DNA of 64,000 nucleotides from an uncultured Candidatus Saccharibacteria bacterium (lineage in GTDB: Bacteria; Patescibacteriota; WWE3; UBA101185; UBA10185), in NCBI GenBank assembly GCA_964510435.1, contig CAZEBU010000001.1:234503-298502 (forward strand), written 5' to 3'. This document shows, piece by piece, positions 9,437-62,070 of this stretch; within the stretch, counting starts at the first letter, position 1; each line of letters opens with the position of its first letter. The translations under genes and the position numbers were made by a program. Under the pieces are notes generated by a model. It had not been told where the DNA came from. It saw only the letters and a list, made by a program, of their open reading frames with translations, and searched no databases.

Positions 9437-9907
9437 ATGAACACATTAAAGAAAAGTCTAATAATAGTATTTTTAATAACCGCTTCTTTGTTTGTGCTTA
9501 GTGATACAAATAAAGTGTACGCGCAATTTGGCGACTGCGATTTAGCTGGGGATACACAATTAGGTGTAACTGTTCCTAAACCCTCACAATTATTGTGCCC
9601 CTTCTACAGAATTATAAATTTCTTTTTCATTATTGTGGGCATTGTTTTTGCAGTTATGCTAGGTGTGGGAGCGATCAAGTTAGCCACCTCTTTAGGTGAT
9701 CCAAAGGCATTTCAGGGGGCCAACAGGACCTGGTTATACGCTGTTATTGGCGCGTTTGTGGCTGTGGGAGCGTATGCTGTTTTGAGGATTGTAAATAACG
9801 CGTTTGGTTTAGGTTTGTCTTTGGGAACAGGCCCCAGCAGCATTTATGACAGCATACAGACACAATGGGAAAATTTAATACGTAACACCTTCTTAATTTT
9901 TGAGTAA
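9437..9907 (+). CDS. Small secreted two-helix hairpin protein, VirB2/TrbC-pilin-like (paralog 4 of 4), with extra N- and C-terminal extensions
   Basis: Signal peptide (..TNKVYA|QFG). Core VGAIKLATSLGDPKAFQGANRTWLYAVIGAFVAVGAYAVLRIVNNAFG aligns with paralogs 1–3. Confidence 0.5.
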   Translation: MNTLKKSLIIVFLITASLFVLSDTNKVYAQFGDCDLAGDTQLGVTVPKPSQLLCPFYRIINFFFIIVGIVFAVMLGVGAIKLATSLGDPKAFQGANRTWLYAVIGAFVAVGAYAVLRIVNNAFGLGLSLGTGPSSIYDSIQTQWENLIRNTFLIFE

Positions 9908-13500: not shown

Positions 13501-13786
13501 CATCACCAAGTTCTAGCGCACGCATAGGGTCGTAAGACACGCCTTTTGGTTTTGTTTGGGCAATTAAAGTTCTTTCCACATCGTCAATAAAGAACTTTTT
13601 AGCTTGATTACCAATGGTTAATTTATCCAGCTCTTTTCTAACCGCAAACAAGTACTTTTCGATCAAAGCATCCGTATTAAATTCGACCATATCAGGGGGT
13701 CTACTATAAGGAGGTCTTTTTCTAGGAATAGGCTTGCCAGGATAGTATCCGCCAAGAAGTTCGTAAAAAGGGTTTGAGTCAGGCAT
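10559..13786 (-). CDS. Large membrane protein: ~730-aa N-terminal domain without signal peptide, two central hydrophobic helices, C-terminal Cys/Gly-rich domain with HExxH zincin-like motif
   Basis: AHETGHVYAM motif in the C-terminal domain. Strongly hydrophobic segment GLVVVIPVMVVFIFILTAITPV. No Walker A motif was found. Confidence 0.5.
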   Translation of the reverse strand: MPDSNPFYELLGGYYPGKPIPRKRPPYSRPPDMVEFNTDALIEKYLFAVRKELDKLTIGNQAKKFFIDDVERTLIAQTKPKGVSYDPMRALELGDEEDVAGVQLELDINPVKWLRNPGEMAKDTVDRFVKDFANWKDFDSYMEQSAMWKPLLSGGEIKPIPGIVSKVYGEHLDESATTKFRPFQLKGLDIPKAKVSVGLLYQEQVGGKETKEFTETETDLFAKSGGAFLSYMQAVRASGTRNKAYRKLINAAALASSAELTQLIDSGDISDPKEVEIVKSYLHRARAIRMANALQGISSSDINTYKFASDRVLTDAQKKAGETLYGEGIGYGLAGLTKELSAYTYGAATIDDANKRLGRVVENITKINVALEEMDNWFIELGGNTLDEFVKDTKPLRNLLKDLDKLKDEKITGETQARNLSGKIGLLQKKYAREGQVKGSLDRMNRKFVETHLLNSPLTKVIFSNDKIVGTKNLANVMEEALRTYKREDFYDLIDRLENDGLLHIAADQFWVLFRERLNGFTPARFLKEKLKRRHYFGLLYDSRYSVEDGVPGDDAVKSSKFFNGIMGTRLFANRQTHNIEGVGKFKFTGNFNIQLGTGLNDRTTLDKSDALHLTGKSFIQLLNGKTGPGVAYKVSYYDGFKELEDVKQRAKSLRKWLMKHNKQLGLKFDANGYLINSPENIEKLKALFKGLDKIEINSDFISILQSKAGILDKLSQRANIIQSKIFKYFKFLAPVAYARNVASKWLSKMATKAISKVLAKVVGAAVAAGTSGIGTVLIPLIEKVVQYVIKKAMDFAAATLKAIKEAKFDAIEKYVEKSAQAVFKLAGYVMGCFGLVVVIPVMVVFIFILTAITPVDPTRMAAGKDFGGGPAAGPPIVCPPEECEVISTVGCFEFLEGWDSGEGPQALSIIQSAAGGLAGTRGRYVDRLCAAGPIEIAWNRGAGCGWARGLNRIEFGDGRCWTYNSANQLLFNWLFAHETGHVYAMRYGMGALGTAQSNDSGYTLPTYVGPTGNQCSTSNNNSEDFAETVGQYHVLSGQCTNVSPSEFWHSYGTYCPTCFEGHYNFATSSFLFGP

Positions 13787-13813
13787 ACGTTTATTTTATA
13801 ATAGATTTATAGT

Positions 13814-15247
13814 ATGAGAAAGGAAACCCTGCTTGATAGAAAAATAGTTCTTAAATTAGCTACATTCTTATTTGTCGGCTTTTTGTTCCTTGGATTATCA
13901 CCAAAAGCGCATGCAGGGGTGTGCGATGAACAACCCCCAAAATTTAGATTTGATATCATGATTGCCTGCAAACTTAAGGAGATTAATCCCCTGGTCTCTA
14001 TTCAGAGAACAATCAACGACGCGGCAACTACCATACTCACTAATGTTTTAGCCTCCATAGTTTTTAATAGTAATCCTGATGATCTGGGGACGTGCGGCGT
14101 TGCTATGTTGGCGGATCGAATAGACACTCTTCCCGGAGTGAATATGACGGACATTACTGATCAAAATGGAGTTTTGTTTAGTGCTGCGGAAGTGCAGGAT
14201 GCTCGTGATGCAGCCCCGGCCATCGGCTGTGATTTTAACGACACCCTTTTCGGGTCAAGGGCTAACGGCAGTTTGATGGGAGTAACTAAATTTGCTTTTA
14301 ACACGGTAACAACAGAGCAGCCTCCGATTAATTTGGCTTATTATTTCAAGCACAATTTGCAGAAGGTACCCATTATCAGTGATACAGCTTATGCACAAAC
14401 AGTGAGCTATAACGCCTGGGGATTGGAATTTGCTATCCAGATTTGGGAAAAATCACGCAACATTGCCTACGCCATGATGTCGGTTATCATGCTTGTCATA
14501 GGCATCCTTATTATTACCAGGAAAAAAATAAACCCCCAGACTGTAGTTTCTGTACAAACGGCTCTACCCAGGATAGTGATCAGCCTTATTCTTATTACTT
14601 TTAGCTATCCTATCGGGGCCATCTTAATATCCATAGGTTACGCCTTGGTAGTCGTTGTTATCAGGTTGTTTTTTGGAACTATTATAGATGATGTATCCCA
14701 GTTGGCGGATATGGATGTGCTGGTAATGATGGTTACTATTATGGCAGCTACTATTGGACCTCAAGGAGTAATAGGAGTAGTGACGGCAATGCTAATGGCT
14801 GTTTTGACCATCATAGCTTTGCTAGTGGCTATTATTAAGATTATAATTATTAATCTAAAGGTTCTTATTGCTATAATTTTTGCACCTATTCAGTTTGCTA
14901 TCGCAGCCATCCCGGGGCAGGAGGACCTGGTGCAGGATTGGTTTAAGAAGATGCTCGCCAAAGTGTTAGCTATTCCTGCCATATTCTTTATGATTGCCCT
15001 AGCTTGGTATATGCTCATTGTGCCCTTTACCAATCCAGATTTCTTTACCAGCATACTCGTACAATCCACTGACCCGATAAGTATTGGATATACCCTGATC
15101 AGAGGAGCAAGGGCGGTTGGTTCCAGAATGATCACTATTATGTTGCTTCCCCTTATGACCATTATGACTATGTTTTTTGCTTTGAAAGCGGATAAAGTAG
15201 TGGAAGAGTTTATTATGGGCGGTAGAGGTAAACCTAAAAGAAGATAG
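13814..15247 (+). CDS. Polytopic membrane protein with signal peptide and N-terminal extracytoplasmic domain, VirB6/TrbL-like architecture
   Basis: Signal peptide followed by a ~200-aa soluble region. At least five long hydrophobic helices in the C-terminal half. Divergent from the 1075-aa gene with only a 27-nt gap. Confidence 0.45.
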   Translation: MRKETLLDRKIVLKLATFLFVGFLFLGLSPKAHAGVCDEQPPKFRFDIMIACKLKEINPLVSIQRTINDAATTILTNVLASIVFNSNPDDLGTCGVAMLADRIDTLPGVNMTDITDQNGVLFSAAEVQDARDAAPAIGCDFNDTLFGSRANGSLMGVTKFAFNTVTTEQPPINLAYYFKHNLQKVPIISDTAYAQTVSYNAWGLEFAIQIWEKSRNIAYAMMSVIMLVIGILIITRKKINPQTVVSVQTALPRIVISLILITFSYPIGAILISIGYALVVVVIRLFFGTIIDDVSQLADMDVLVMMVTIMAATIGPQGVIGVVTAMLMAVLTIIALLVAIIKIIIINLKVLIAIIFAPIQFAIAAIPGQEDLVQDWFKKMLAKVLAIPAIFFMIALAWYMLIVPFTNPDFFTSILVQSTDPISIGYTLIRGARAVGSRMITIMLLPLMTIMTMFFALKADKVVEEFIMGGRGKPKRR

Positions 15248-45734: not shown

Positions 45735-45772
45735 AAAAAAGGGCACCGCCTGATTGGTTATCAGTGGTGCCC
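45735..45772 (-). terminator. Rho-independent terminator for the FBP aldolase/phosphatase gene
   Basis: Stem GGGCACC...GGTGCCC. On the minus strand it is followed by TTTTTT. Confidence 0.55.
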
Positions 45773-50934: not shown

Positions 50935-52236
50935 ATGACAGGCGCAAAACACCCTATGTTCACATTTAAAGACTTTAACGTAACTTTTGAAGAAGCAACC
51001 TTATCTAACGGTGTGCCGGTAGTATTGTTTCGAAGAAAGGGTATGCCTATTCATTTACAAATTGCTTTTGCTGCCGGCTCCCGTTTTGATCCTGTGGGTA
51101 AGGAGGGTTTGGCGCATTTTACGGAACATATGATAGTCTCTGGTTCTAAGAAATTCCCAAGCAAGATTAAAATTGCATCTCACGTTGCACAGCTCGGAGC
51201 TGCTTTTGGTGCATCAACATCTAAGGATATTCTAAAAACAAAGTTCGAGGTGGTTGGAAAAGAGGATTTTAAGGAGATCGCTATTCTAATGGAGGAATTC
51301 CTATCAAACTCTTTGTTTGATGAGAACACAATTGAACGTGAGAGGGGAGCAATAATCAGTGAGATTGGTATGCTGGAATCAAGTCCTGCAAGAAAGATAG
51401 GTATTGTAGGAAGAAATTTATACTTCCAGGGTACTAATCTTGCGCGGAATGTTTCAGGAAGTAAGGAGTCAGTAGCTAGTATTTCGAAAGATGATATTAA
51501 AAATTATTACAGCAGCATGTTGGGCTCTAGTCGAGCAGTAATAGTGTTAAGTGGCGATATAGGTATGGGCGATGTGATTGATCAATTAGAGAGTAAGTTT
51601 AAATTAAGAAAGTCGGAAAAATTTAGTTTTGGTGAAATGCTCCCCATTATACGTGAGAAAGCTACTTTAGCTTTAAAATATCCTGGTCAAAACCAAGTTA
51701 GGATAATGTTAGGATTTCGTGTATGTGGAATCAAAGACGAAGATGCACTTCCTTTGGCGGGATTAGCCTCTATTGTTGGTGGTGGTAAGACAGCTGCGTT
51801 GAATAAGAAGCTAAGGTATGAAAAGGGGTTGGTTTATTCCGTCAGTGCATCAATGTGGTCGTTTCCAGATGGAGGTGTTTGGGATATTTATACATCAACT
51901 CCAAAAGAAAAAGTACAGCAAGTTATAGACATAATCTTAGAAGAAATTAAAAGAGTTTCGTCTGGAGAGATAACAGAAGAGGAATTTGTTAAAGACAAGA
52001 AAAGAGTGTTGAAATCAACTAGAAGGAGAATGCAAACATCAAGTGCATGGGTAAGAAGACACATCATTAAGGAGCTCTACGGAGATCACACACGTTATCC
52101 TGATTTTCTAAATAAAATTGATTCACTACAGTTAGTAGACATCAAACGAGTTGGAAAAAAATACTTTAAGCCTGGAACATGGTATTTGGCCATGGCTGGC
52201 GATATTGATGAAGACAGTGTGAAGATAAATTACTAA
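50935..52236 (+). CDS. M16-family (pitrilysin/insulinase-like) zinc peptidase
   Basis: Inverted zinc motif HFTEH followed by downstream Glu residues. Confidence 0.65.
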   Translation: MTGAKHPMFTFKDFNVTFEEATLSNGVPVVLFRRKGMPIHLQIAFAAGSRFDPVGKEGLAHFTEHMIVSGSKKFPSKIKIASHVAQLGAAFGASTSKDILKTKFEVVGKEDFKEIAILMEEFLSNSLFDENTIERERGAIISEIGMLESSPARKIGIVGRNLYFQGTNLARNVSGSKESVASISKDDIKNYYSSMLGSSRAVIVLSGDIGMGDVIDQLESKFKLRKSEKFSFGEMLPIIREKATLALKYPGQNQVRIMLGFRVCGIKDEDALPLAGLASIVGGGKTAALNKKLRYEKGLVYSVSASMWSFPDGGVWDIYTSTPKEKVQQVIDIILEEIKRVSSGEITEEEFVKDKKRVLKSTRRRMQTSSAWVRRHIIKELYGDHTRYPDFLNKIDSLQLVDIKRVGKKYFKPGTWYLAMAGDIDEDSVKINY

Positions 52237-52332
52237 CTACCTACATGCCAAAAAAAAGAAGGATACTTCATCGTATAGATAAAGTATCCTCTTGTTGAAG
52301 TCCCGCGCTTCTTTACAACTAAAAATCGTCAG

Positions 52333-52572
52333 CTAGCTCCTGAGGCTGGCCATCTTCTCCGCAAGCTCTTTAGCAAATCTATGCCTGATGGGGCCTGTCT
52401 CCTCAGGACGACCGCTGGCAAGATGACTAAGCATAGCAACTTCCTCTGCATTTTCCTCTGACACGCCTTCGTCAACAAGTTGGCTCCTCCTGCAGGCAGG
52501 ACAGACGTCGTAAGAGGGATCAAAACCTTGCATTCCGCACATATGACCGGATAGAACTGATGAATCTGACAT
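52333..52572 (-). CDS. Small Cys-containing protein (HxCG...CPAC), possible zinc-finger regulator (higher GC)
   Basis: 79 aa with HMCGM...CPACRR. RBS AAGGAGA at -8. Confidence 0.4.
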   Translation of the reverse strand: MSDSSVLSGHMCGMQGFDPSYDVCPACRRSQLVDEGVSEENAEEVAMLSHLASGRPEETGPIRHRFAKELAEKMASLRS

Positions 52573-52593
52573 AATTATCTGTCTCCTTAAGTG

Positions 52594-52665
52594 GTGGATT
52601 TTTTAAATTATAGCAAAAAAAGAACCGCCGTAAAGTGTGCACGTAAGCACGAAAATACGACGGTT
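52594..52665 (-). repeat. Copy 1 of a conserved intergenic terminator-containing module (minus-strand orientation)
   Basis: GTGGATTTTT...AAAAAAGAACCGCCGTAAAGTGTGCACG...CGACGGTT. On the minus strand this is a hairpin followed by TTCTTTTTTT. Shares more than 40 nt with copies at 54767, 57283 and 58948. Confidence 0.6.
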
Positions 52666-52700
52666 TAGGTTTTGGGTTGGCAACTTAGGGTAGGTTTGGT

Positions 52701-53009
52701 CTACAAGAAGTATTTGCCAGCCATTGAAAGGATCATAGCTACATAGCCAAGCAGCCATGTACCCACTATGCTCCCATCCATTGATTGACCTATTCCGCCC
52801 AAACGCTTAAGGACAACCCTTATAAAAGCAGCGCCAGTAGAAATACCCAATCCAAGTAGGAAGATCCTTTCCAAGTTCGGGTGTGGGTACCAATACGACT
52901 CCCAATATGTGGGAAAGACAAATGTAGGTACCACAAACACTATCATGACCAGCGTGATAATCAGCATTGTGACCGGATCCTGAAGCTTTTGGAACCTCGT
53001 TTGGGACAT
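52701..53009 (-). CDS. Small polytopic membrane protein
   Basis: 102 aa with 3 TM helices. Confidence 0.4.
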   Translation of the reverse strand: MSQTRFQKLQDPVTMLIITLVMIVFVVPTFVFPTYWESYWYPHPNLERIFLLGLGISTGAAFIRVVLKRLGGIGQSMDGSIVGTWLLGYVAMILSMAGKYFL

Positions 53010-53156
53010 TTTCCTCTCCTTCTTCTCTTTCTTATGGATTTGGGTAATTATACACTGTGGTTGGGATTAGGTAAAGTGCTATAGGGTGATGATGTACGAC
53101 ACGAGGTTTTTAAAGTTAACTAGATTTAAAATGTACAAAAAGTCTATACTGGATGA

Positions 53157-53702
53157 ATGGAATCTTGGATAATCACTTTTGGCTACTTTGGACTATTTGC
53201 AGCCACAATAGTAGGTAATGCATCAATTATGTTGCCAGTACCAATCGATGGTCTCGTATTAGCAGCAGCTGGTTTTCTTGACCCTCTAATAGTAACTATT
53301 GTTGCCACTATTGGCAGTTCGATAGGTGAGATGAGCGCGTATTATATAGGGCTTGGGGGGCGGTATGTGGTTACAAAAGGTAGGAGTGACGATGAAAAAA
53401 TCGACGAAAATGATATTGATGATACTAACAAAGCTAAAAAGCCTAAGGTTGACAGTGCTGTTTTAAAAAAGATTGAACGAATTTTGCATAAACATGGCTT
53501 TATAACTATTCCGGTCTTTGCATTTACACCGCTGCCAATAGATCCCTTAGGAATAGTCTGTGGCGGCATAGCCTACAACGTGAAAAAGTTTTTTCTGGGA
53601 GTCCTTATAGGTAAATTTTTTAGGATGCTGGTAATTTCACTTTCCGCGGTATACGCGATAGATTGGATTATAAGTCTGGTTAAGTGGTTTGGAATCAGTT
53701 AA
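53157..53702 (+). CDS. DedA/TVP38-family membrane protein (with an inserted hydrophilic loop)
   Basis: N-terminal GYFGLFAATIVGNASIMLPVPIDG resembles the DedA signature. Confidence 0.5.
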   Translation: MESWIITFGYFGLFAATIVGNASIMLPVPIDGLVLAAAGFLDPLIVTIVATIGSSIGEMSAYYIGLGGRYVVTKGRSDDEKIDENDIDDTNKAKKPKVDSAVLKKIERILHKHGFITIPVFAFTPLPIDPLGIVCGGIAYNVKKFFLGVLIGKFFRMLVISLSAVYAIDWIISLVKWFGIS

Positions 53703-53785
53703 AGATTTACATTACCCACACCCACATATATACTTGTTGGACTCTTTTTATATAACTTATTTCTAATTGAGGAGGTGGATTTTTT

Positions 53786-54190
53786 GTGGAATTTCCAAAA
53801 AACATTGAAGACTTTTTTAGTAAACCTAATTTTATGACCCTATCTGAATTCAACTTGGACGGAACTATCCATTCGACGATAGTATGGTTCGAATATGATC
53901 CTGAAAACAATGGGTTTCGTTTTAGTACAACAGGAGATAGGATCAAACACAGAAATTTGAATAAAGACCCAAGATGCACTTTTGTAATCGCGAATTTAGA
54001 AAATATGTATCAATTTGTTCAAGTTAGAGGAGAGGTAACTGACCAAACCCGTGAAGGTGGTCACGACTTTATTGACAAGTTGGCAAAACATTATATGGGA
54101 AAGGATACATATCCTTTTGACCCGGAAAGAAAAGACGATAGAGTCACTTTTACAATCACCCCCAAAAGCTTTTTCACCATGGGTTTTTAA
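53786..54190 (+). CDS. Pyridoxamine 5'-phosphate oxidase-like FMN-binding split-barrel protein
   Basis: Split-barrel pattern TLSEFNLDGTIHSTIVWFEYD...RFSTTGDRIKHRNLNKDPRCTF typical of the PNPOx-like family. Confidence 0.55.
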   Translation: MEFPKNIEDFFSKPNFMTLSEFNLDGTIHSTIVWFEYDPENNGFRFSTTGDRIKHRNLNKDPRCTFVIANLENMYQFVQVRGEVTDQTREGGHDFIDKLAKHYMGKDTYPFDPERKDDRVTFTITPKSFFTMGF

Positions 54191-54200
54191 GGAGTAAAGA

Positions 54201-54232
54201 AAAACCCCATTCGTGGGTGAACGGGGTTTTAT
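54201..54232. terminator. Bidirectional rho-independent terminator between convergent genes
   Basis: GC-rich hairpin AAAACCCCATTCGTGGGTGAACGGGGTTTT with T runs on both strands. Confidence 0.55.
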
Positions 54233-54248
54233 GTTGTGAGCACAATAG

Positions 54249-54683
54249 CTAGCCTAGATCCAGTGTGTTTATGTATTCCCTGAATACACCGAGTCTTGAG
54301 TCCTTGTGGTCAGACAGGGGTAAGAGGTTTGGATCTGGATTCCCAAGGGCAGTAAGGGTGATACCATCTTTTTCCACCTGCTCACGAGCAATGAAACTCA
54401 GTAGCTCCCTCACAATCCGAGTTGTTGGGTCACTGTAGCTTTGGATCAAGCGTAGGAAAATCCCTCTCAACCTATCGGTAGCTATGTTTTGATCTCTCAT
54501 CATGAGGGGAATCGCAATATCGCATAGGACCCTGATGATGTCACTTGTGCTGAGGAATTTTGTATCCATGGCACTGTGATGTCCTACCAAAACCTTAAGA
54601 TCCTCAACAATATCGTCAGATGTTAGATACCATCCTTTTGCGTAAAGCCAAATATGGTGCCATTTCTGTAGCTCTGTGTTCAT
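54249..54683 (-). CDS. Hypothetical protein (start set at the internal Met with RBS GGAGGTGG; the ORF track extends to 54890)
   Basis: RBS GGAGGTGG 5 nt upstream of ATG at 54683. The upstream part of the long ORF overlaps repeat copy 2 and the 54857..55846 gene. Confidence 0.45.
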   Translation of the reverse strand: MNTELQKWHHIWLYAKGWYLTSDDIVEDLKVLVGHHSAMDTKFLSTSDIIRVLCDIAIPLMMRDQNIATDRLRGIFLRLIQSYSDPTTRIVRELLSFIAREQVEKDGITLTALGNPDPNLLPLSDHKDSRLGVFREYINTLDLG

Positions 54684-54732
54684 ATCCACCTCCTTGATAT
54701 CACTCCGACTCCTCTTATATGGGTTTGCTGAG

Positions 54733-54761
54733 ATACTAGCAGGGATGTGCTTGTGTGTCAA
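54733..54761 (-). promoter_or_regulatory. Sigma-70-like promoter (TTGACA-17-TAGTAT) inside repeat module copy 2, driving the 54249..54683 gene
   Basis: On the minus strand: TTGACA, a 17-nt spacer, then TAGTAT. Lies about 45 nt upstream of the RBS. Confidence 0.45.
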
Positions 54762-54766
54762 AGCTA

Positions 54767-54838
54767 TGGGATTTATGTAGAAAAAAAGAAACCGCCATAA
54801 AGTGTGCTTGTGCACAGCCTCACGGCGGTTTTTGTGTT
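54767..54838 (-). repeat. Copy 2 of the conserved terminator-containing module
   Basis: GGGATTTATGTAGAAAAAAAGAAACCGCCATAAAGTGTGCTTGTG...CACGGCGGTTT. On the minus strand this is a hairpin followed by TTTCTTTTTTT. Confidence 0.6.
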
Positions 54839-54856
54839 GAAAAAGGCATCCAACCC

Positions 54857-55846
54857 CTATTGGAGAGGGATTTCCTTTGTTGCGTACCAAATAGGTTCAT
54901 GTCCAGTATCGACTGTAGGGGATCCTACAATATGTACGAACTGATTTTCCCCACGAATTTCAACTTGCAGTGTTTCTGCAGTCCCTCCGCTAGTGTTCAG
55001 ATCGTCTCTAGATAAACCCAGGATTTCCAGAACACTATCCATTTGATTTGGGGAAATCGAATAATGAGCTAATTTCCCGCCGTCGCTAAATGGGGCACCC
55101 AATAGCGATACTAAGTTTTCAAACATGTTGACCTCCTTCGGTTTTATCCTCAACCACCCAACACTAGCGTGGTATGGGAGTTTGTAGTCGCTGCAGTGAT
55201 CTGGACAATCTTCCCTATCTCTGTAGCGCTTACCCATAATAGGGTAGAGTCCCCAAGGGTTACACACACATTTGCGAAGTTTCTTCTCACCACCACAGTA
55301 GTGGCAAGGATATTCGGCGAACATGTCCAAGTGATCTCCATAAGAGATACCTGAACCCCTGCAGTGTGGGCAAGGCGGTTCATCTTCTCGCCAACGTTCC
55401 AACCACCAGGGAATCCCTTTAATGCGGGTTATTAACCGCTGAGCTGGGTACCTAAAACGGCGATTGAGAAAATATCTCACCTCTCCTTTTACCTTGAACC
55501 AATCGAATCTGTATCTAAGCCTCCACCAGAAAACGGTACGGTCAATTCGCCACAATTTAAGAAGTGACATATCGCTATAACGCTCCTTTACGCTGAACTC
55601 GCCGTTTTCGTACCGTATATAACCCTGGACAGTAGTCTTTGAGCTTTGACTAATTGTCACAAAAGCTCCGGCTCGGTAAGAAACTCCGCCATCGTATCTG
55701 ATTACAAGCTCATCCTCAAGCAACTTCCTGTCTTCTGACGAAAGTCTCAGTTTGTGCAAAGTTCCATCATTGTCGATGAGCACATCTGACTCAAAGTGTA
55801 ACGTTGGACTGCCTTGCATCGGTAAAACTACCTGCACGTCGTACAT
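54857..55846 (-). CDS. Hypothetical protein with DnaJ-type CxxCxGxG zinc-finger repeats
   Basis: CPHCRGSG and CHYCGGEKK motifs. RBS AGGAGG 5 nt upstream of the ATG. Confidence 0.5.
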   Translation of the reverse strand: MYDVQVVLPMQGSPTLHFESDVLIDNDGTLHKLRLSSEDRKLLEDELVIRYDGGVSYRAGAFVTISQSSKTTVQGYIRYENGEFSVKERYSDMSLLKLWRIDRTVFWWRLRYRFDWFKVKGEVRYFLNRRFRYPAQRLITRIKGIPWWLERWREDEPPCPHCRGSGISYGDHLDMFAEYPCHYCGGEKKLRKCVCNPWGLYPIMGKRYRDREDCPDHCSDYKLPYHASVGWLRIKPKEVNMFENLVSLLGAPFSDGGKLAHYSISPNQMDSVLEILGLSRDDLNTSGGTAETLQVEIRGENQFVHIVGSPTVDTGHEPIWYATKEIPLQ

Positions 55847-56016
55847 GTTTTCCTCCTGTTTATTCTATTTTTGTTTGTGGAAAGATAATAAAAGTTTAAT
55901 ACAACTTCTGATCCGACTATCTATCCACTTAAGGAATCCAGATTGTCTTAGGGGATTATAACACCAGTTTAACAGCACGTCAACACTATAGGAGAGTAGC
56001 ATACCGTAATTACAAG

Positions 56017-56262
56017 CTACGAAGTATTACTGTTTTTTTCACCTTCTACTTTGCATGTATTAATACCTAGAAGATGATTAACCGGACAATATCCAACAAT
56101 TGCCGTAATCAACCCAATTACCGTTATTAAATAAAACCAAGGACTGACCGTAAAACCAAGATATGCCCCAACACCAGCAGCAAGTATCCTAATTATTTTC
56201 TCAGTTGACCCAACATTGCATTTCATATCGCTTATTATATTCACATTTAGGCACACGTACAA
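56017..56262 (-). CDS. DUF2892 (YgaP-like) small membrane protein
   Basis: RILAAGVGAYLGF...GYCPVNHLLGINTC pattern typical of DUF2892. Confidence 0.5.
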   Translation of the reverse strand: MYVCLNVNIISDMKCNVGSTEKIIRILAAGVGAYLGFTVSPWFYLITVIGLITAIVGYCPVNHLLGINTCKVEGEKNSNTS

Positions 56263-56352
56263 GAGGTAAAGTGGTCTTGAGTAAGTTCGAAGCTAACAAA
56301 AAGACAAAAGGCGTCTGGTGTCGCTACGAAGCAAACAAAAGACGCCCAATTG

Positions 56353-57192
56353 TTAGAGATGTTCTATTGCCTTTTCAATATGCCGGTAGGTGCCCTTGAA
56401 GTTATTTTCCGTAAGGCACTCCTGCGCTCTTTTTATATGATATCGAGCCCACCGAGCATAATGAGCAAAAGGCTTGTTTTCAAGCAGGTGCTCAAGAGTT
56501 TTGTAGTGCAGACCTAGTGAATTTCCCAAACCTTTGGATGTTCCGTTGATCTTAGTCTCACCACTTACAGGCACGAAGTCTAAAAGAATTTCCAAGGCCC
56601 CTCTAACATGGCTTTGGACTTTATTTAGCCTATCCAATCTGGACTCTACCGCTTTTTCCCGACCAGCTAGATGGGTGCTGATAGCATCAATTTTTTCTAT
56701 GCGATCAAGAACCACGCCCGTCAAAGCTGTCTGCTCAACTGCCTTCAAAGGTTCCTGAGAACTTGCTTTCTCGAGCATCTTCCAAAGCCTGCTTGTCTCC
56801 CTTAAGTATTTTGGTTGAGTGTGCTCTGCAAGCTGTCTCTGCAAAGCAGAGAGATCATCAAGCTGTTGGTAGATAAGCAGTCTGAAGTCATCCTCACTTA
56901 GACGAACAATTCCCAAAGTGTATAGTTTCTCTCTCCTCAGCTTTCTAAGTTTAGAAACAGAGATTGGGTAGTTTGCCGGTAGGGGAATCCACCTGGGGTT
57001 GAGATAAGTTTTGTTTAGTCGAACTCGTGCGTGCCTTTTCTTTCCCCTCTGTTTCCAAGTAAGCCTGATCCTACCCTTAATAACAAGAAGCATCCTTGTT
57101 CCGGGAACTCTCTTCACTTCCAACGAGCCCTCTCTTATGCCCTTCCAAACTCTTTCCCACGTAAGTGACGGTGTATCTTTCCTTCGAGCCAT
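56353..57192 (-). CDS. Hypothetical basic protein
   Basis: RBS GGGAGAAAAGGA upstream. Promoter inside repeat copy 3 upstream. Confidence 0.5.
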   Translation of the reverse strand: MARRKDTPSLTWERVWKGIREGSLEVKRVPGTRMLLVIKGRIRLTWKQRGKKRHARVRLNKTYLNPRWIPLPANYPISVSKLRKLRREKLYTLGIVRLSEDDFRLLIYQQLDDLSALQRQLAEHTQPKYLRETSRLWKMLEKASSQEPLKAVEQTALTGVVLDRIEKIDAISTHLAGREKAVESRLDRLNKVQSHVRGALEILLDFVPVSGETKINGTSKGLGNSLGLHYKTLEHLLENKPFAHYARWARYHIKRAQECLTENNFKGTYRHIEKAIEHL

Positions 57193-57234
57193 GTCCTTTT
57201 CTCCCTACTAATATGTGTATGTAAGTTAGTATGT

Positions 57235-57263
57235 ATTATATGATGTCTTTGATTGGGAATCAA
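57235..57263 (-). promoter_or_regulatory. Sigma-70-like promoter (TTGATT-17-TATAAT) adjacent to repeat copy 3, driving the 56353..57192 gene
   Basis: On the minus strand: TTGATT, a 17-nt spacer, then TATAAT. Lies about 36 nt upstream of the start codon. Confidence 0.45.
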
Positions 57264-57282
57264 AGCTACAGGTTTGCTGGGG

Positions 57283-57340
57283 GTGGATTTTTGTGTGGAA
57301 AAAAAGAAGGACACCTTAGTATATGAATAAGGTGCCCTTA
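57283..57340 (-). repeat. Copy 3 of the conserved terminator-containing module (divergent hairpin sequence, conserved flank)
   Basis: GTGGATTTTTGTGTGGAAAAAAAGAAGGACACCTTAGTATATGAATAAGGTGCCCTT. The flank is identical to copy 4, and the hairpin arms carry compensatory changes. Confidence 0.55.
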
Positions 57341-57352
57341 TGGTAGAGCTCA

Positions 57353-57658
57353 CTAAGAAACTTGAACTACATCACCAAGAACCTGCAAATCCTCCATGAG
57401 TTCTTCGAAAGATCCCTGGTAGTGCCTCATGTTTGGTACCGTGCTTGTACCGTCTCCCCAGGGTCCTACTTGGCTGATCTCGTCAACCTGGTGTACCAAG
57501 CCGTTTTCTCCCACGTGAATAGTAAGGGGAGTTGTTTCGGCATCGTCCTCTCTAGGTAGAAGAACTGAGATAGCACTACTTCCTGAGAATCTCCTATTCG
57601 CATCAAAAGCCAAGAAACTTCTTGTTGCATAAACATTAATTGCAACCTTTGAGTTCAT
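57353..57658 (-). CDS. Hypothetical protein (start at the internal Met with RBS AAGGAGAGG; the ORF track extends to 57724)
   Basis: RBS AAGGAGAGG 4 nt upstream of ATG AAC TCA. Confidence 0.45.
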   Translation of the reverse strand: MNSKVAINVYATRSFLAFDANRRFSGSSAISVLLPREDDAETTPLTIHVGENGLVHQVDEISQVGPWGDGTSTVPNMRHYQGSFEELMEDLQVLGDVVQVS

Positions 57659-57862
57659 AACCTCTCCTTTTATATTTTGTTTAAGGCTGTTGGTTATTTT
57701 AAGTGAAAATACTATAGATGTCAATCCTATAGGATAGTGGCTTTCTACAAAGAACTTTACCCGAAGTTTATTATTTCACTTATTTAAAAGCACTCTCTAT
57801 GTAATATTTATTCTATTTGGTAAAATACCCTGATGTATTAATTTTTGGTGCTTTACTAGGAG

Positions 57863-58111
57863 GTGTCGCATATGAAAACAATGACATGCAATCAGCTAGG
57901 TGGTGCTTGTGATCATAAAATTATAGGCGAAACATTTGACGAAATGGCTAAAAAAGCCCAAGAACATGGTATGGAAATGGCTGCCAATGGAGATGAAGCT
58001 CATATAAAGGTTATGGAAGCTATGAAAGAAAGTATGAATGATCCGGAAGCAATGAAGGAATGGGTGGAACAAAGGAAAAAAGAGTTTGACGCTTTACCGG
58101 AAGATGAATAG
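57863..58111 (+). CDS. DUF1059 family small protein
   Basis: MKTMTCNQLGGACDHKIIGETFDE matches the DUF1059 N-terminal pattern (CxxLGGxCD). RBS AGGAGG. Confidence 0.55.
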   Translation: MSHMKTMTCNQLGGACDHKIIGETFDEMAKKAQEHGMEMAANGDEAHIKVMEAMKESMNDPEAMKEWVEQRKKEFDALPEDE

Positions 58112-58180
58112 ATAGGTTTATTGGCTTTTCATTCTAACCTAAAAGAAATTGTTATGCTATCGCCAATAGAGATGTTTTCC

Positions 58181-58384
58181 TTAAAGAAAGTTACCACCTT
58201 TTTTAATCATAAGCTTGGTTTTCCAAGAAGTTTTTCCAACATTCGCTGTTATAGGATATCTTCCCCAGGTTTTTCTGTCTATTTTTAAACTTTCACTGTA
58301 TTTTCCAGGTACGCTAACATAAAACCAACCGCTTTCTCCTGGAAATTTCTCCACGGTACCTTCAAATGAAATGTCCCAACTCAC
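58181..58384 (-). CDS. Small beta-rich hypothetical protein, possibly DUF1905-like
   Basis: 67 aa. The assignment is weak. Confidence 0.3.
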   Translation of the reverse strand: MSWDISFEGTVEKFPGESGWFYVSVPGKYSESLKIDRKTWGRYPITANVGKTSWKTKLMIKKGGNFL

Positions 58385-58561
58385 TACACAATTCTATCAA
58401 AGCTGGCTCTACATAGCTGAGGATGTTCGAACTAGTTTTAATCCCCGGATCCCATCTAACTAATGCTGATATCTAAAAGCTTTTGCTTAATTAGCTTATC
58501 CTGAACCTGAAAGTCGGGTGCAAAAGATACTTTTATGGCTGGAAGTAGTTCTTTTTGTTCT

Positions 58562-58843
58562 TTAGTTAGTATGTTTGGATGCATTTGCATTCGAGAAGTA
58601 TAAATCAAAATAATATTTTGCTCTTGGTCTGATGTTGACTCTTGAATTGTTTGTTAATGATTCATAGAGTTCCTTTGTTTTGCCAAAGCCTAATTCACTA
58701 ATAGTTTCCTGCACCTGTTTCCAAGTACCGTAGTTTAGAACGTGTTCCAAAATGCTTCTGTTACTTAAGTTAGCATTGTTTTTTGTATACCAAACAAGGG
58801 AAGGGTCTTGGCGAATAATTTTACTTAGGTTTGGGTTGCTCAT
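58562..58843 (-). CDS. Hypothetical protein
   Basis: 93 aa. A putative promoter lies just upstream, following repeat copy 4. Confidence 0.4.
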   Translation of the reverse strand: MSNPNLSKIIRQDPSLVWYTKNNANLSNRSILEHVLNYGTWKQVQETISELGFGKTKELYESLTNNSRVNIRPRAKYYFDLYFSNANASKHTN

Positions 58844-58947
58844 GCATCCATTATGTCACCTGTGTTAGTAGTAAATTGGCTCCCCCTCAACAGTGTTTCT
58901 ATGCACCGAGGGTGAATACTAGCACAGCTTACTTGAACTATTAAAGA

Positions 58948-59010
58948 GTGGATTTTTGTGTAGAAAAAAGAACCGCCATAAAGTGTGCATGTGAGCAAAA
59001 TTATGGCGGT
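58948..59010 (-). repeat. Copy 4 of the conserved terminator-containing module
   Basis: GTGGATTTTTGTGTAGAAAAAAGAACCGCCATAAAGTGTGCATGTGAGCAAAATTATGGCGGT. On the minus strand a 9-bp perfect stem is followed by TCTTTTTTCTACACAAAAATCCAC. Confidence 0.6.
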
Positions 59011-59052
59011 AAAGACCAATATATAGTAATGGATAAAGGTGCTGGAAACCAT

Positions 59053-59493
59053 TTAGAGAGGAAGCTGGTTTTTAGAACCTTTGTCTGCTCGCATTGCATA
59101 ACCCATACCACCTTCCCAAGCACTTACGAAGAGAGGAATAAGGGTGATGATCATCTTGGTAGCTAAATGCAGGAGCTCAATTTCATCTGATTCACTTTCT
59201 ATGGTAATTGTTTCGCCAAGAAAAGGATCTATAGACACTATCCCACACAGCTTTGTGCAGGCCAAACCTGCTGAGATGATTAGAGTTTCTCCTGAAAGCA
59301 ATTCCAATTTTTGGAACTGTTCAAATAGAGAGTGTGTCCACTGATCATAATAATCTTCTAGGCTACCATCCTCTATTTGAGTGAGATACATTTCATCAAT
59401 CCTTGAATCCTCAATCTTTTTATACTCCTCATAACGCACAAAACGCAGTATCACTCCCACAGAGTGATTACATTCTTCGATTGATGTGCTCAT
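59053..59493 (-). CDS. Hypothetical acidic protein
   Basis: 146 aa with no recognisable motifs. Confidence 0.45.
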   Translation of the reverse strand: MSTSIEECNHSVGVILRFVRYEEYKKIEDSRIDEMYLTQIEDGSLEDYYDQWTHSLFEQFQKLELLSGETLIISAGLACTKLCGIVSIDPFLGETITIESESDEIELLHLATKMIITLIPLFVSAWEGGMGYAMRADKGSKNQLPL

Positions 59494-59651
59494 TTCATCA
59501 TTCCCTTTCTGTTTGCTTGGTCTAATTATTTGATGTCACTGATTATTATAAGGCAGGGTGAAAAACCAGTCAACACTATAGGGCTCTTGCGTAATTACTC
59601 ATACAGAACTTTATCCGAGATCTACTAGAATTTTTAGTATAATTTAAATAA

Positions 59652-60011
59652 ATGGACAACATTATTAAAGTATTGAAAGTTATCTTCTTGATTGTTGGTG
59701 TTATTGTTGGTTTAGCAGCTTTGTTTCTTATTTATTTTGTGTTTATGGGGATTAAATCTGGCGATTTGGCTGGTTATGTACAAAAAACTGCTATAGAAAA
59801 TGTGGTCGATGAGAATAATCTTAGTCCCGTTCAAAAACAAATGCTTGAGTCAGGTGATATAGATGGCTTGGTTGAGGATTTACAAGAAAATGTAACTCAA
59901 GAGCAAATTGATTGTGCTACGCGAGCTGTAGGGGAGAAAAGAGCTCGAGAATTGATGGTAACCCAGGATCCTTCCCCTCAAGAACTTTTGATTCTTTCCA
60001 AATGTTTATAG
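59652..60011 (+). CDS. Small membrane-anchored hypothetical protein
   Basis: N-terminal TM helix followed by an acidic soluble region. Confidence 0.4.
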   Translation: MDNIIKVLKVIFLIVGVIVGLAALFLIYFVFMGIKSGDLAGYVQKTAIENVVDENNLSPVQKQMLESGDIDGLVEDLQENVTQEQIDCATRAVGEKRARELMVTQDPSPQELLILSKCL

Positions 60012-60108: not shown

Positions 60109-60753
60109 CTATGTTTGCCACTTTTTTGGATCTACAGGGGGCTTTTTTTCTTTGTTGTAGTATTCAAATTGCTTCTTATTTAGTGGGTACCATTCGTCAT
60201 GAGGGTATCGTCTGAAAAATTGCGCAATGCTCTCCCTAAAGTGTTCTGTGGCCTCGTCATTTAGTTCACCTTTTCTCAACTTAACTATATTTTTTTCTAA
60301 AAGTGAGCGTCTAATTTGGATAACCATGTGAAAGTTTACTGCCATGTTTTTTGTAAATCCCAAAGTATCATCTTCTGGTAGGTAGAACCATTTAGAATTT
60401 GCTTTAGATTCTTGTGTAATCATATTAACCCACCATTTAGTTATGTTGGCTTTCTTGTCGTGCGAGGGTTTTTGTCCTACAACCTCTATGAAATCGTTTA
60501 TAACGAAAAGAGAAAGTATAGGTACCCGAGAAGCATCACAGTTTTGAGATGCAACTATTGCCCATGTTGCAGTAACAGGTACTAATACAGTATGGTCTAC
60601 TGTATGATTCAAATCTACCCATTTACTTTCTACTGCCCCTCCATCTTCTTTTATAACAGGTAATCTTTCAGTATCTACTGTAGGATAAGGTACTGGATAG
60701 AAAATATCCCCTTGTTCTATTGGTTTATCATTTTCGGGGAACTCATAAATCAT
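60109..60753 (-). CDS. Hypothetical protein, third gene of a tightly overlapping three-gene operon
   Basis: Its start overlaps the stop of the upstream gene by 11 nt. Confidence 0.5.
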   Translation of the reverse strand: MIYEFPENDKPIEQGDIFYPVPYPTVDTERLPVIKEDGGAVESKWVDLNHTVDHTVLVPVTATWAIVASQNCDASRVPILSLFVINDFIEVVGQKPSHDKKANITKWWVNMITQESKANSKWFYLPEDDTLGFTKNMAVNFHMVIQIRRSLLEKNIVKLRKGELNDEATEHFRESIAQFFRRYPHDEWYPLNKKQFEYYNKEKKPPVDPKKWQT

Positions 60754-61285
60754 CGATATCTGGACTTAAATAATTTTCAAATTCAGCTTCATTTTTAACA
60801 TAATCCTGCCACTCTCTTTTTAGTTCGTGAAGCGATTCCATTGCAATCTTATATGCTTCCTTTGTTGTGACAGCTTTTCCAGTTTGTTTTAACACCGACG
60901 GACTGACTGATGGTGAAACTGATGCCCGCTCTAATGTATCAACCACATAATAACTTTCAGCATTTGCTGATGGTGAAACTGATGCAGAAGGAGAGACAGC
61001 CACACTTTCTGAAATATCCAATGCCGATAGTGTTGGGCCGGTACTAACCAACGAAGGACCAAAACCTTTTAATGAAGATAAACCAAATGTTATACGCCTT
61101 GTTTTAGGAATGTATGCTAATTCGCTGGTTGTTGCAAGTGCTGCGTTTGGGTATTGAGTATCTCTAATCGATTGCAAAGTATCGGGGAATGTCTCCCAGG
61201 AGCCTGCACGGGCATAATTTTCAGGTATTTGATCTGTCTCTGTTAGTATTGCTGTGCCTACTCTGGGTTTAGTTTTAACTCTCAT
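60743..61285 (-). CDS. Hypothetical protein with Ser/Pro/Val low-complexity repeats, middle gene of the operon
   Basis: SVAVSPSASVSPSA...SVSPSVSPSV repeats. The DNA repeat CTGATGGTGAAACTGATGC occurs twice. There is a 4-nt ATGA overlap with the upstream gene. Confidence 0.5.
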   Translation of the reverse strand: MRVKTKPRVGTAILTETDQIPENYARAGSWETFPDTLQSIRDTQYPNAALATTSELAYIPKTRRITFGLSSLKGFGPSLVSTGPTLSALDISESVAVSPSASVSPSANAESYYVVDTLERASVSPSVSPSVLKQTGKAVTTKEAYKIAMESLHELKREWQDYVKNEAEFENYLSPDIDDL

Positions 61286-62070
61286 AGTTCAACTCCAATC
61301 AACGATTTGTAACACTCTGTGGCGACATTGTTGGCATCATCTAACCAACTGTTAAAGGAATCTATATCCAAAGGTCCACCTATTTCTTTATTAATCACTA
61401 TGTCCCATATCAATGCAGGTTTACCTGATTTTCGACCTTTCTTGATGGATGTTTTTAAACTTGTACCATCCTTTATTAAGGGGTACCCAAATCCAAACTC
61501 AAAACCATTTGGATTGCTGCCAAAAACTTTTTCGTCATGAAGTTGCTCTGGTAAGTTAATGTCGATGTCCATGGTTTTGTTTAGAAAACTAAAAACATTC
61601 TTTTGTTCAAAATTGAATGGAAATGCGTTTATATATCTGATCGTGATATTTGCTATTTTGAGCTGTGAAGTATCAGGATGGATTTGAAGAAACTTTTCAT
61701 ATCCATCTGTTATTCCCTTTCTAAATGTTGCCCACTTGTAAGAATCCCCTTCATTGTAAGTAAATAAACCAGGACCCAATTGAACCAATGGCCACCCATT
61801 CTTTACTTTTCTCCACCTGTATTGAACGAATCCTGCAACAACGCTTTCAGGGGCAGATGCAGCCATTTGGGGTTCATCTACAGGGTAATCCTTTTTAAAC
61901 GCATCAAATGCTCTGCCAACAAGTATCCTGTAATGTGGATCCACGAACATACCAGATTGGTCTCCTGTTTTTGATTGCCATCTTATCTCTGCGATCGCTT
62001 CTATTAGTGGGCGTTTTTTATTTTTGGCAGGAGGATTTTTTTTAGCTTTATTCATATCTGCCATATACAA
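61282..62070 (-). CDS. Hypothetical protein, first gene of the operon (the ORF track start is TTG; ATG at 62064 or 62055 is more likely)
   Basis: 262 aa and Lys-rich N-terminus. No confident family assignment. Confidence 0.5.
   Translation of the reverse strand: MYMADMNKAKKNPPAKNKKRPLIEAIAEIRWQSKTGDQSGMFVDPHYRILVGRAFDAFKKDYPVDEPQMAASAPESVVAGFVQYRWRKVKNGWPLVQLGPGLFTYNEGDSYKWATFRKGITDGYEKFLQIHPDTSQLKIANITIRYINAFPFNFEQKNVFSFLNKTMDIDINLPEQLHDEKVFGSNPNGFEFGFGYPLIKDGTSLKTSIKKGRKSGKPALIWDIVINKEIGGPLDIDSFNSWLDDANNVATECYKSLIGVEL

Follow-up and report, generated by a model that had tools for sequence, protein, structure and literature searches.

We analysed a 64,000-nucleotide stretch of contig CAZEBU010000001.1 (hereafter the window), in which small genes are separated by a repeated intergenic element, made up of a predicted transcription terminator followed by a promoter-like site, that we refer to as a module. 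The modules lie in an island at 52.2-59.7 kb whose small genes, about a dozen in number, are encoded mainly on the minus strand and for the most part have no family assignment; the family matches are to VTT/DedA, PNPOx-like, YgaP-like transmembrane and truncated DUF1905 proteins, and NCBIfam and PHROGs added nothing for the genes flanking the repeats. (Two labels used in the preliminary description of this region were not confirmed: at E<=0.01 Pfam gave no match to 'DUF1059', and the 'DnaJ zinc-finger' match lay below threshold.) The genes whose stop codons precede the hairpins are also called in public assemblies, and the products of the genes on either side are mutually unrelated (all E>0.05). 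No transposase, integrase or recombinase turned up when the proteins encoded by the island, over 52-64 kb, were scanned with Pfam, NCBIfam and PHROGs. Outside the island the window is ordinary chromosome (tmRNA, five tRNAs, dnaG, rpoD and FBPase), and the G+C content of the island shows no anomaly. By its protein matches the organism belongs to Patescibacteria, near candidate division WWE3, and its nearest relatives are only ~54% identical to it in a housekeeping peptidase. The genomes of Patescibacteria are tiny and contain few recognisable regulators, and hardly any experimental genetics exists for these bacteria.

Predicted terminators between the island genes

The preliminary description had placed four copies of one segment at 52594, 54767, 57283 and 58948. 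We found these coordinates to be correct, and the repeat itself to consist of three copies plus one: the segments at 52594, 54767 and 58948 (copies 1, 2 and 4) have a common hairpin, T-tract and flank, whereas the segment at 57283 (copy 3) has only the T-tract and flank in common with them. Specifically, the minus-strand core GCACACTTTAYGGCGGTTYYTTTTT occurs three times (52615-52640, 54782-54807 and 58963-58988) with at most three mismatches, compared with 0 matches in shuffled sequence, and local alignments of the intergenic regions stood far above shuffles for copies 4 and 2 (z=20), 4 and 1 (z=18) and 2 and 1 (z=11.5). Copy 3 lacks the CCGCC...GCACAC hairpin, and its alignment with copy 4 (z=10.5) is confined to TTC(T)TTTTTTCYACACAAAAATCCAC, i.e., the T-tract and the flank CACACAAAAATCCAC. 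Its own hairpin, AAGGGCACCTTA..TAAGGTGTCCTT, is of a second type and resembles that of a fifth terminator at 52259-52291 (z=5.9). No two window copies have 21 or more identical bases in common.

A covariance model (R1) built from copies 1, 2 and 4 scored them at 79.1, 81.9 and 86.8 bits, respectively, and copy 3 at 27.1 bits; the plus strand of copy 2 scored 26.1 bits. Given that ordinary terminators elsewhere in the window (24237 and 50856 on the plus strand, 54179 on the minus strand) reached 23-25 bits on the same model, the GGTTCTTTTTT or stem-TTCTTTTTT ending is a general terminator style of this genome, and the part specific to the repeat is the hairpin sequence together with the CTACAC..AAATCC flank. 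Rfam gave no relevant match at gathering or lenient thresholds, even at E<=5 in 52000-59700.

All five hairpins are stable on the minus strand (-16 to -28.5 kcal/mol, z from -4.4 to -7.3). In four of the five the plus-strand fold is weaker because G-U pairs turn into C-A mismatches, while copy 4 folds equally well on both strands. As expected of intrinsic terminators, the stems of 10-14 pairs run into a U-rich tract (CTTTTTTT or TCTTTTTT), and the hairpins start 35, 24, 13 and 42 nt past the stop codons of the 102-, 329-, 101- and 146-aa genes on the same strand. The copies thus look like Rho-independent terminators of the minus strand, as the preliminary description had proposed; a general terminator scan missed those of the first hairpin type (type A), their loops being longer than the 8 nt that it allows. 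The further suggestion of that description, that the hairpin arms had undergone compensatory change, was overstated. Among the 13 pairs compared across the three type A copies, 8 are invariant, 3 show one-sided wobble changes and 1 is changed on both sides (A-U / G-U / G-C), which makes the argument weak for type A, since at n=3 these changes do not differ from shuffles. Between the two hairpins of the second type (type B; 57307-57339 and 52259-52291), two pairs were changed on both sides on direct reading of the sequence.

Two other readings of the repeat were rejected on inspection. A small plus-strand open reading frame (ORF), suggested by the resemblance of GTGGATTTTTGTG to a ribosome-binding site with GTG, has frames that are inconsistent between copies, and a small RNA with its own promoter is ruled out by the lack of a consistent promoter upstream of the hairpins.

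Predicted promoters downstream of the hairpins

Every copy is followed, on the gene strand, by a sigma-70-like or extended -10 promoter-like site for the next gene, and the promoter-like hexamers lie at the right distance from the start codon (28-70 nt between -10 and ATG). In copy 1 (type A, 52594-52668, minus strand), the hairpin at 52623-52665 (AACCGTCGTA...TACGGCGGTT) and T-tract at 52614-52622 overlap the promoter TTTACG-16-TATAAT with TGn (52634-52607), of which the -35 lies within the 3' arm of the hairpin and the extended -10, TGCTATAAT, at 52607-52615; it is followed by the tail AAAAAATCCAC, a ribosome-binding site and the ATG (52572) of a 79-aa gene. Copy 2 (type A, 54733-54833, minus strand) has its hairpin at 54789-54831, T-tract at 54781-54788 and CTACATAAATCC at 54769-54780, followed by CCCATAGCT and the promoter TTGACA-17-(TGC)TAGTAT of a 144-aa gene (ATG 54683). 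The hexamers of this promoter occupy 54761-54733 (with CCCATAGCT, 54733-54770), its -10 reads TGCTAGTAT, and the plus strand of copy 2 likewise carries a hairpin with TTTTTGTGTTG. Copy 3 (57235-57340, minus strand) comprises the type B hairpin (57307-57339), a T-tract (57298-57306), CACACAAAAATCCAC (57283-57297) and CCTGTAGCT-TTGATT-17-TATAAT (57235-57272, hexamers 57263-57235), which precedes a gene for a conserved 279-aa protein. Both promoters named in the preliminary description, those of copies 2 and 3, were therefore recovered. Finally, copy 4 (type A, 58876-59014, minus strand) has its hairpin at 58972-59010, T-tract at 58964-58971 and CTACACAAAAATCCAC at 58948-58963, followed by TTTAAT-18-TGCTAGTAT (58945-58916) before a 93-aa ORF (ATG 58843). 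Here the -35 (58940-58945) is weak, matching 3/6 positions, yet the extended -10 (58916-58924) has TGn and TAGTAT; a small hairpin, CACCCTCGGTG, lies in 58898-58915, and GGGGGAGCCAA at 58876-58886. Against the sigma-70 consensus, the promoters of copies 1-3 match 10/12 positions.

Four further island promoters, ending at 53085, 55992, 57733 and 59582 and all on the minus strand, match 10-11/12 consensus positions. Three of these, which we call P1-type, are CGGATAAAGTTCTGTATG...CCTATAGTG-TTGACT-17-TATAAT of the 146-aa gene (59545-59620), which retains the right part of a clade-wide spacer described below, CTTCGGGTAAAGTTCTTTGTAGAAAGCCACTAT-CCTATAGGA-TTGACA-17-TAAAAT of the 101-aa gene (57696-57775) and CCTATAGTG-TTGACG-17-TATAAT of the 329-aa gene (55955-55992); the P1-like CCTATAGCAC-TTTACC-17-TATAAT (53047-53085) precedes the 102-aa membrane protein gene. 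The island is thus laid out as four units of promoter, gene, terminator module, promoter, gene and terminator. In these four promoters and those of copies 2 and 3, i.e., in six island promoters, a CCYRTAG motif stands 2-3 nt upstream of the -35, and plausible or housekeeping promoters elsewhere in the window are without it.

Two further terminators of the island are the fifth one mentioned above (type B-like, 52259-52291, minus strand; GAGGATACTTTATC..GATGAAGTATCCTT with T8), which lies after the 79-aa gene and is convergent with an M16 peptidase gene, and a terminator of a third type (type C, 56309-56347, minus strand; GGGCGTCT...AGACGCCT with TTTGTCTTTTT) after the conserved 279-aa gene. A terminator with the type B stem, GGGCACC...GGTGCCC followed by T6, also lies outside the island after the housekeeping FBPase gene (45741-45772, minus strand), so that this stem is not confined to accessory genes.

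A module family in related species

We reached the corresponding loci of relatives through the conserved 279-aa protein, which gave three other species (loci L020, L023 and L026); two more loci, L015 and L017, come from the same Joint Genome Institute sample series as L026 and probably belong to the same organism. The preliminary description had named uniqueness to the four sites as the result that would count against it. We found instead that at least three other species of the WWE3-like clade have the module family, and at non-orthologous sites. The feature is therefore real and non-random, and it is broader than four sites, being a clade-wide family with the order terminator, linker, (spacer) and promoter.

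In this family a hairpin of type A (ACCGCC..GGCGGT), B (GGGCACC..GGTGCCC) or C (GGCGTC..GACGCC) is followed by TTTTTCTACACMAAAAYC, often by a ~55-nt spacer ending in GGGGAGCCA, and by a CCTATAG-NN-TTGAC-17-TATAAT promoter; full-length modules read hairpin, TTTTTCTACACMAAAAYC, CTTCAATAAAACACTTCGGATAAAG..TATGGGGAGCCA and CCTATAGTGTTGAC-17-TATAAT. An alignment of 12 hairpin-linker junctions from four species has a TTTTTCTACA core, with invariant TTCTAYA, after all three hairpin types, and a type A hairpin with CTACACAAAAA is present at L020 821-892 (29 bits on the covariance model). Two profiles delimit the family. A full-length profile, built from four copies in L020 and L017 (E from 1e-32 to 2e-40 against their own profile), detected the module again in L026, L015/L017 and L023, with E from 1e-7 to 7e-16, and a profile of the spacer, for which eight copies in L020, L017, L015, L026 and L023 were used, recovers these eight at E from 1e-12 to 3e-17. 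Neither found a module in L018 (a more distant relative) or L002 (an unrelated locus), and in the window they found only partial copies (59600-59618 and 57739-57773). The four window copies look like internally shortened modules, with the linker joined almost directly to the promoter.

Individual parts recur beside different genes. Copy 4 matches L026 4349-4390 with 81% identity over 42 nt, and keeps GGGGGAGCCAA as well as a small hairpin, whose homologue at L026 3640-3690 is an insertion. The type C terminator has an orthologous counterpart, conserved in sequence, after the homologous gene in L020, L023 and L026, and at L026 3523-3569 the type C hairpin also stands behind a gene of no relation. 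Copy 2 (TCCCATAGCTTTGA) and the 279-aa homologue in L026 have promoters with the same sequence over 14 nt, and here the promoter of one gene type appears to be reused before the unrelated 144-aa gene.

The exact core 25-mer was absent from 185,579 species genomes (in which the source genome is not a species representative) and from viral contigs, and a metagenome collection returned only a fragment of the window organism. The M16 peptidase, used as query against genome contigs, matched only an unrelated Sphingomonadales sequence. Of two 18-mers from the spacer, one had 0 matches in viral contigs and the other four apparently chance matches without the rest of the module.

Several observations in the relatives' loci concern the arrangement of modules. 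The densest array is L026 1-4400, where modules lie between at least six consecutive single-gene units (including genes of 89, 81, 223, 113 and 178 aa), some modules having extra small hairpins (UUCG-type loops) inserted in the spacer; between two genes of the minus strand, at L026 1678-1715, a promoter fragment points the 'wrong' way. In L023 a 145-aa gene (12109-12546) lies between ~45-nt direct repeats (CAAAAATGGTTCTAACATTGTTCACGRTGCGGAGCCAA) of a module variant (11940-12010 and 12690-12745), immediately beside a gene for a large serine recombinase (13001-14366). The same locus has, within 9784-9890, a tRNA-Asn(GTT) whose end, GGGGGAGCCA, is the same 9-10 nt as the spacer end of the modules, and its 28-nt downstream flank is homologous to what follows GGGGAGCCA in four modules of L026 (z=5-8). 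On these alignments the similarity could reflect an old att-site relationship or coincidence.

The CCYRTAG motif, often part of a dyad such as ATCCTATAGGAT and placed before a near-consensus TTGAC-17-TATAAT, forms a clade-specific promoter grammar. It is found on the minus strand of the window at 53047-53085, 54733-54770, 55955-55992, 57235-57272, 57696-57733 and 59545-59582, in L026 at 728, 3101, 3694, 9725, 10673, 11175, 13114 and 17133, in L020 at 437, 937 and 11152, and in L017 at 6784 and 7357; ACTATAGG is the commonest 8-mer in L026. Two other ideas were rejected. Against a DNA-uptake sequence, the window has no over-represented 8-12-mers except tRNA arms, and a T7/SP6-like promoter on the opposite strand (CAACACTATAGG) would transcribe away from every downstream gene, an orientation that, together with the perfect sigma-70 hexamers on the gene strand, led us to reject it.

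A conserved gene and spacer in a variable region

The 279-aa protein (56353-57192, minus strand) is 54-65% identical across the clade and its gene is the sole island gene common to the relatives, i.e., the anchor of the variable region. Its AlphaFold model is confident (pLDDT 87) and shows an N-terminal beta domain and a helical bundle. We considered it as a recombinase or regulator and rejected this, as it had neither a sequence match nor, at E<=0.001, a fold match in the PDB. The promoter and 5' untranslated region of its gene (57193-57234) are kept in relatives, and the -10 element with the CA-rich leader (TATAATACAYACTAACTYACATACACATATTARTAGGGAGA) is ~90% conserved between species, above the protein-coding part.

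Beyond this gene, the loci have in common only a distal block (an 83-aa gene, DUF192, S41 peptidase, MgtC and GH1). The interval between the two anchors measures about 10.7 kb in the window, 1.8 kb in L020 and 8.2 kb in L026 and holds unrelated small genes, each bracketed by modules in the relatives; the other island genes have no homologue in the relatives' loci. Gene content is thus variable between conserved flanks, in a comparison between species at 54-65% protein identity rather than between near-identical strains.

Both the CTACAC linker and the spacer show strong conservation. The ~55-nt spacer is 84-90% identical between species (84-91% within and between species), compared with 64-68% for orthologous coding DNA at the same loci, and has no conserved RNA structure (consensus fold -1 kcal/mol, no covariation). 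This implies that constraint, or recent spread, acts on the DNA sequence. Being more conserved than coding DNA and without RNA structure, the spacer is a candidate protein-binding element, and it may serve at the DNA level as a substrate for protein binding or for recombination.

Comparison with known systems

In the promoter-early stem-loop (PeSL) cassettes of T4-type phages, ~100 nt hold both a terminator of stem-loop form and a strong, sigma-70-like promoter (Arbiol et al. 2010, PMC2839356; Comeau et al. 2014, PMC4122927). Their recombination and mini-circles have been shown experimentally, and their stems are often polyG/polyC (PMC2839356, PMC4122927). The modules share with them a ~100-nt conserved composite of terminator stem-loop, strong sigma-70-like promoter and AT-rich stretch, repeated in intergenic regions between non-homologous ORFans in hyperplastic regions with conserved core flanks, a concentration beside ORFans that differ between related genomes, and a layout in which each ORFan would be insulated. 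Unlike PeSLs, the modules are chromosomal in Patescibacteria, with tmRNA, tRNAs, dnaG and rpoD in the same window. They have no sequence relationship to PeSLs (0 PHROG matches, and no core 25-mer in viral contigs), they keep a fixed order of terminator and then promoter, and they carry the extra ~55-nt spacer and the CCTATAG motif. Whereas PeSL recombination is experimental, the modules are known from sequence, and the fragments of the window organism are collinear.

A survey of putative mobile promoters described similar upstream regions of 50-100 nt in front of genes without homology, both inside one genome and between genera (Matus-Garcia et al. 2012, PMC3488235). Highly similar upstream regions before non-homologous genes are common to both systems: measured against the survey's threshold of at least 80% identity over 50-100 nt, copies 4 and 1 are ~86% identical over ~65 nt and the spacer is 84-91% identical over ~55 nt. 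The survey families differ in being defined by this identity only, and in cultured genomes, while the modules include the preceding terminator and the spacer and are linked to a single variable locus in a clade without cultured members.

Likeness to other repeats is more partial. Integron cassette arrays also have imperfect hairpins (attC) at the boundaries of mostly small genes of unknown function. The modules, by contrast, have neither the R''/R' consensus (RYYYAAC and GTTRRRY; the sequence reads AAAGAAC|CGCC...GGCG|GTTTTTG, GTTTAGG or GTAAAGA) nor a nearby integrase; their genes have their own promoters and mixed orientation, and their hairpins, with G-U pairs and T-runs, are of the kind typical for terminators acting as RNA. 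Phage 'morons' are likewise accessory-gene transcription units bracketed by a promoter and a terminator, but moron regulatory sequences are not conserved between morons, while those of the modules are homologous. Repetitive extragenic palindromic (REP) sequences, bacterial interspersed mosaic elements (BIMEs) and REP doublets forming hairpins (REPINs) are, like the modules, imperfect intergenic palindromes after genes; the module copies, however, are few and clustered, without a REP-associated tyrosine transposase (RAYT), and each is joined to a promoter.

Interpretation of the modules

We consider it probable (we would put the chance at around 60%) that the modules are propagated regulatory cassette boundaries of the PeSL or mobile-promoter kind. 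Under this reading, the Rho-independent terminator of each copy would stop transcription of the upstream minus-strand gene, and the linker of T-tract, CTACAC and A-tract would join it to a sigma-70-type or extended -10 promoter, in whose upstream region this linker would lie and from which transcription of the next gene would restart. With a terminator and a promoter at each boundary, every small island gene would therefore form an insulated transcription unit. Both the terminating and the initiating activity are predicted here from sequence anatomy. The family would have spread from one intergenic site of the variable region to another, through duplication or recombination, being copied or kept beside unrelated ORFan genes in the hyperplastic region around one conserved gene; the non-orthologous placement of a common sequence points to such spread.

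Several observations weigh against this reading. Being short and 75-90% identical, the window copies offer RecA-type recombination a poor substrate, and conservation of the spacer could equally reflect a common regulator-binding region without mobility. Public fragments of the window organism, found by looking up the island proteins in other samples, are 99.4-100% identical to and collinear with the window, and no alternative island gene order was seen in any of them, one further look-up having given no match; among strains of the relatives, gene order is likewise unchanged. Promoter-like sites over the whole region number 38, compared with 37.9 expected from shuffles. Moreover, the clade sequence examined amounts to ~130 kb, and for the window organism to the 64-kb window and public fragments. 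Regarding the earlier proposal of a mobile or duplicated cassette boundary, relatedness of the modules by descent or propagation is thus supported by their non-orthologous sites in three species, while mobility gained no support from the collinear fragments.

One alternative is co-regulation only, in which one or more clade-specific transcription factors, or a factor accessory to RNA polymerase, would bind the CCTATAG dyad, the GGGGAGCCA/AAAGTTCT spacer and the CTACAC linker; purifying selection would keep these sites at many promoters, with nothing mobile and the similarity of the terminators incidental. We regard this as rather unlikely, although it accounts for a spacer that lacks RNA structure yet is 84-90% identical between species, as DNA-level recognition would predict. 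It also fits the motif itself, as CCTATAG(G) is palindromic, keeps its position 2-3 nt upstream of the -35 at the six island promoters and is the most over-represented word in L026; in L020 it also stands before a gene setting outside the island (11152, upstream of msrA), and an XRE-type helix-turn-helix gene in L020 has such a promoter. What it leaves unexplained is the recurrence of hairpin sequences, including loop halves, together with the linker at non-orthologous sites, as well as the housekeeping promoters in the window that are free of the motif; and a spacing between sub-motifs of 4 to >25 nt, with internal indels, is atypical of a fixed protein-DNA architecture. A regulon could coexist with the terminate-and-restart mechanism. 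Two other explanations would make the modules sites of exchange. That WWE3-like Patescibacteria possess a gene-cassette platform not described before seems doubtful to us: in it, a ~170-190-nt module (terminator hairpin, CTACAC linker, spacer ending in the tRNA-Asn-3'-like GGGGAGCCA, and CCTATAG promoter) would be the recombination site for insertion, loss and exchange of single ORFan genes, each insulated and ready for expression, at a hyperplastic locus anchored by the conserved 279-aa protein, i.e., a chromosomal, promoter-carrying counterpart, in ultra-small symbiotic bacteria, of integrons and phage PeSLs. Site-specific recombination in a stricter sense, with hairpin and core forming an attC- or att-like site mobilised in trans and the island an integron-like array, perhaps derived from integration at a tRNA-Asn 3' end, is decidedly improbable. 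The single-gene ORFan units bounded by conserved, hairpin-containing sequences would suit it, as would the L023 tRNA-Asn end shared with the spacer, the homology of the next 28 nt, and the repeat-flanked 145-aa gene next to a serine recombinase gene; the tRNA identity, however, extends over only 9-10 nt, no recombinase, integrase or transposase domains were found in the window island proteins, and the 279-aa protein has no fold match to recombinases. Direct reading found no RYYYAAC/GTTRRRY boxes, the genes lie in both orientations, each with its own promoter, and no presence or absence of cassettes was seen at strain level.

A selfish repeat of the REP/REPIN kind or like a miniature inverted-repeat transposable element, i.e., a small palindrome inserted after genes that only resembles a terminator, is very unlikely. 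It would explain several imperfect intergenic palindromes at gene 3' ends in one orientation, and independent short-read assemblies do break inside copy 4 (58968-59038), as they would at repeats, but assemblies also break at many other places. All copies lie within 6.4 kb (52.6-59.0 kb), with none in the other 57 kb of the 64-kb window; we saw no terminal inverted repeats beyond the hairpin, no target-site duplications and no partner gene such as RAYT or an IS200-type gene, no further exact 25-nt core was found in the species genomes or, outside the same organism, in metagenomes, and the G-U pairs point to a strand-specific structure at the RNA level. Least probable of all, and largely refuted, is a purely local history in which a two-gene unit was tandemly duplicated and its coding parts later replaced or diverged. 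The four-fold layout of the window agrees with it, but the coding sequences retain no residual similarity while the non-coding parts are 75-90% identical, and the family occurs in other species beside other genes.

If the modules are also exchange sites for accessory genes, this would explain a plastic ORFan region beside a conserved core in reduced genomes, and the PeSL principle, which has so far been shown only for T4-type phages, would extend to cellular chromosomes. The promoter and terminator grammar of the clade (CCTATAG-NN-TTGAC-17-TATAAT, three hairpin types and the CTACAC linker) would in addition provide parts for direct use in expression constructs, and would aid the annotation of transcription units in metagenome-assembled genomes.

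Further observations

Five short-read contigs (VAPB, VAPC, SRR6439358 and SRR6439359; two or three samples) end inside copy 4 at 58968-59038. The ends of the VAPB and VAPC contigs coincide exactly with Logan assemblies of SRR6439359 and SRR6439358, and these may be the same data. Such ends could reflect further near-identical copies, elsewhere in the genome or in the community, or else a hairpin that is poorly covered.

Two relatives' loci have geneless, G+C-rich and structured-looking stretches of the 250-400 nt class after a CCTATAG-type promoter. One lies at L020 11190-11616 (plus strand), upstream of msrA; a similar one at L015 11500-11745 (minus strand), equivalent to L017 4860-5110 (minus strand), is convergent in L015 with an M16 peptidase gene. 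Neither matches an Rfam family at the gathering score, and they may be undescribed non-coding RNAs or long leaders.

The sequence AACCTATAGTATTGACA-17-TATAAT is contained in two related viral contigs of ~14.6 kb, L029 (IMGVR_UViG_3300045988_151812) and L030. The former has one copy near each end (21-57 and 14406-14442), inverted, and the latter one exact match near one end (144-180). These contigs may be phages with the same promoter grammar, perhaps phages of Patescibacteria, or the match may be due to chance.

Signs of gene decay are visible downstream of copy 4 (58181-58843, minus strand), where truncation has left a DUF1905 ORF of 67 aa, matching positions 1-57 of the 81 in the profile, and two overlapping ORFs of 93 and 50 aa resemble one gene split by a frameshift; the 93-aa product has no record as a called gene. 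Adjoining the island, a three-gene operon (60109-62070, minus strand; 214, 180 and 262 aa) encodes two proteins without a family and, as its last product, one of the TIGR04255 family (E 5e-27); the operon might be a system of defence type or another of sporadic distribution.

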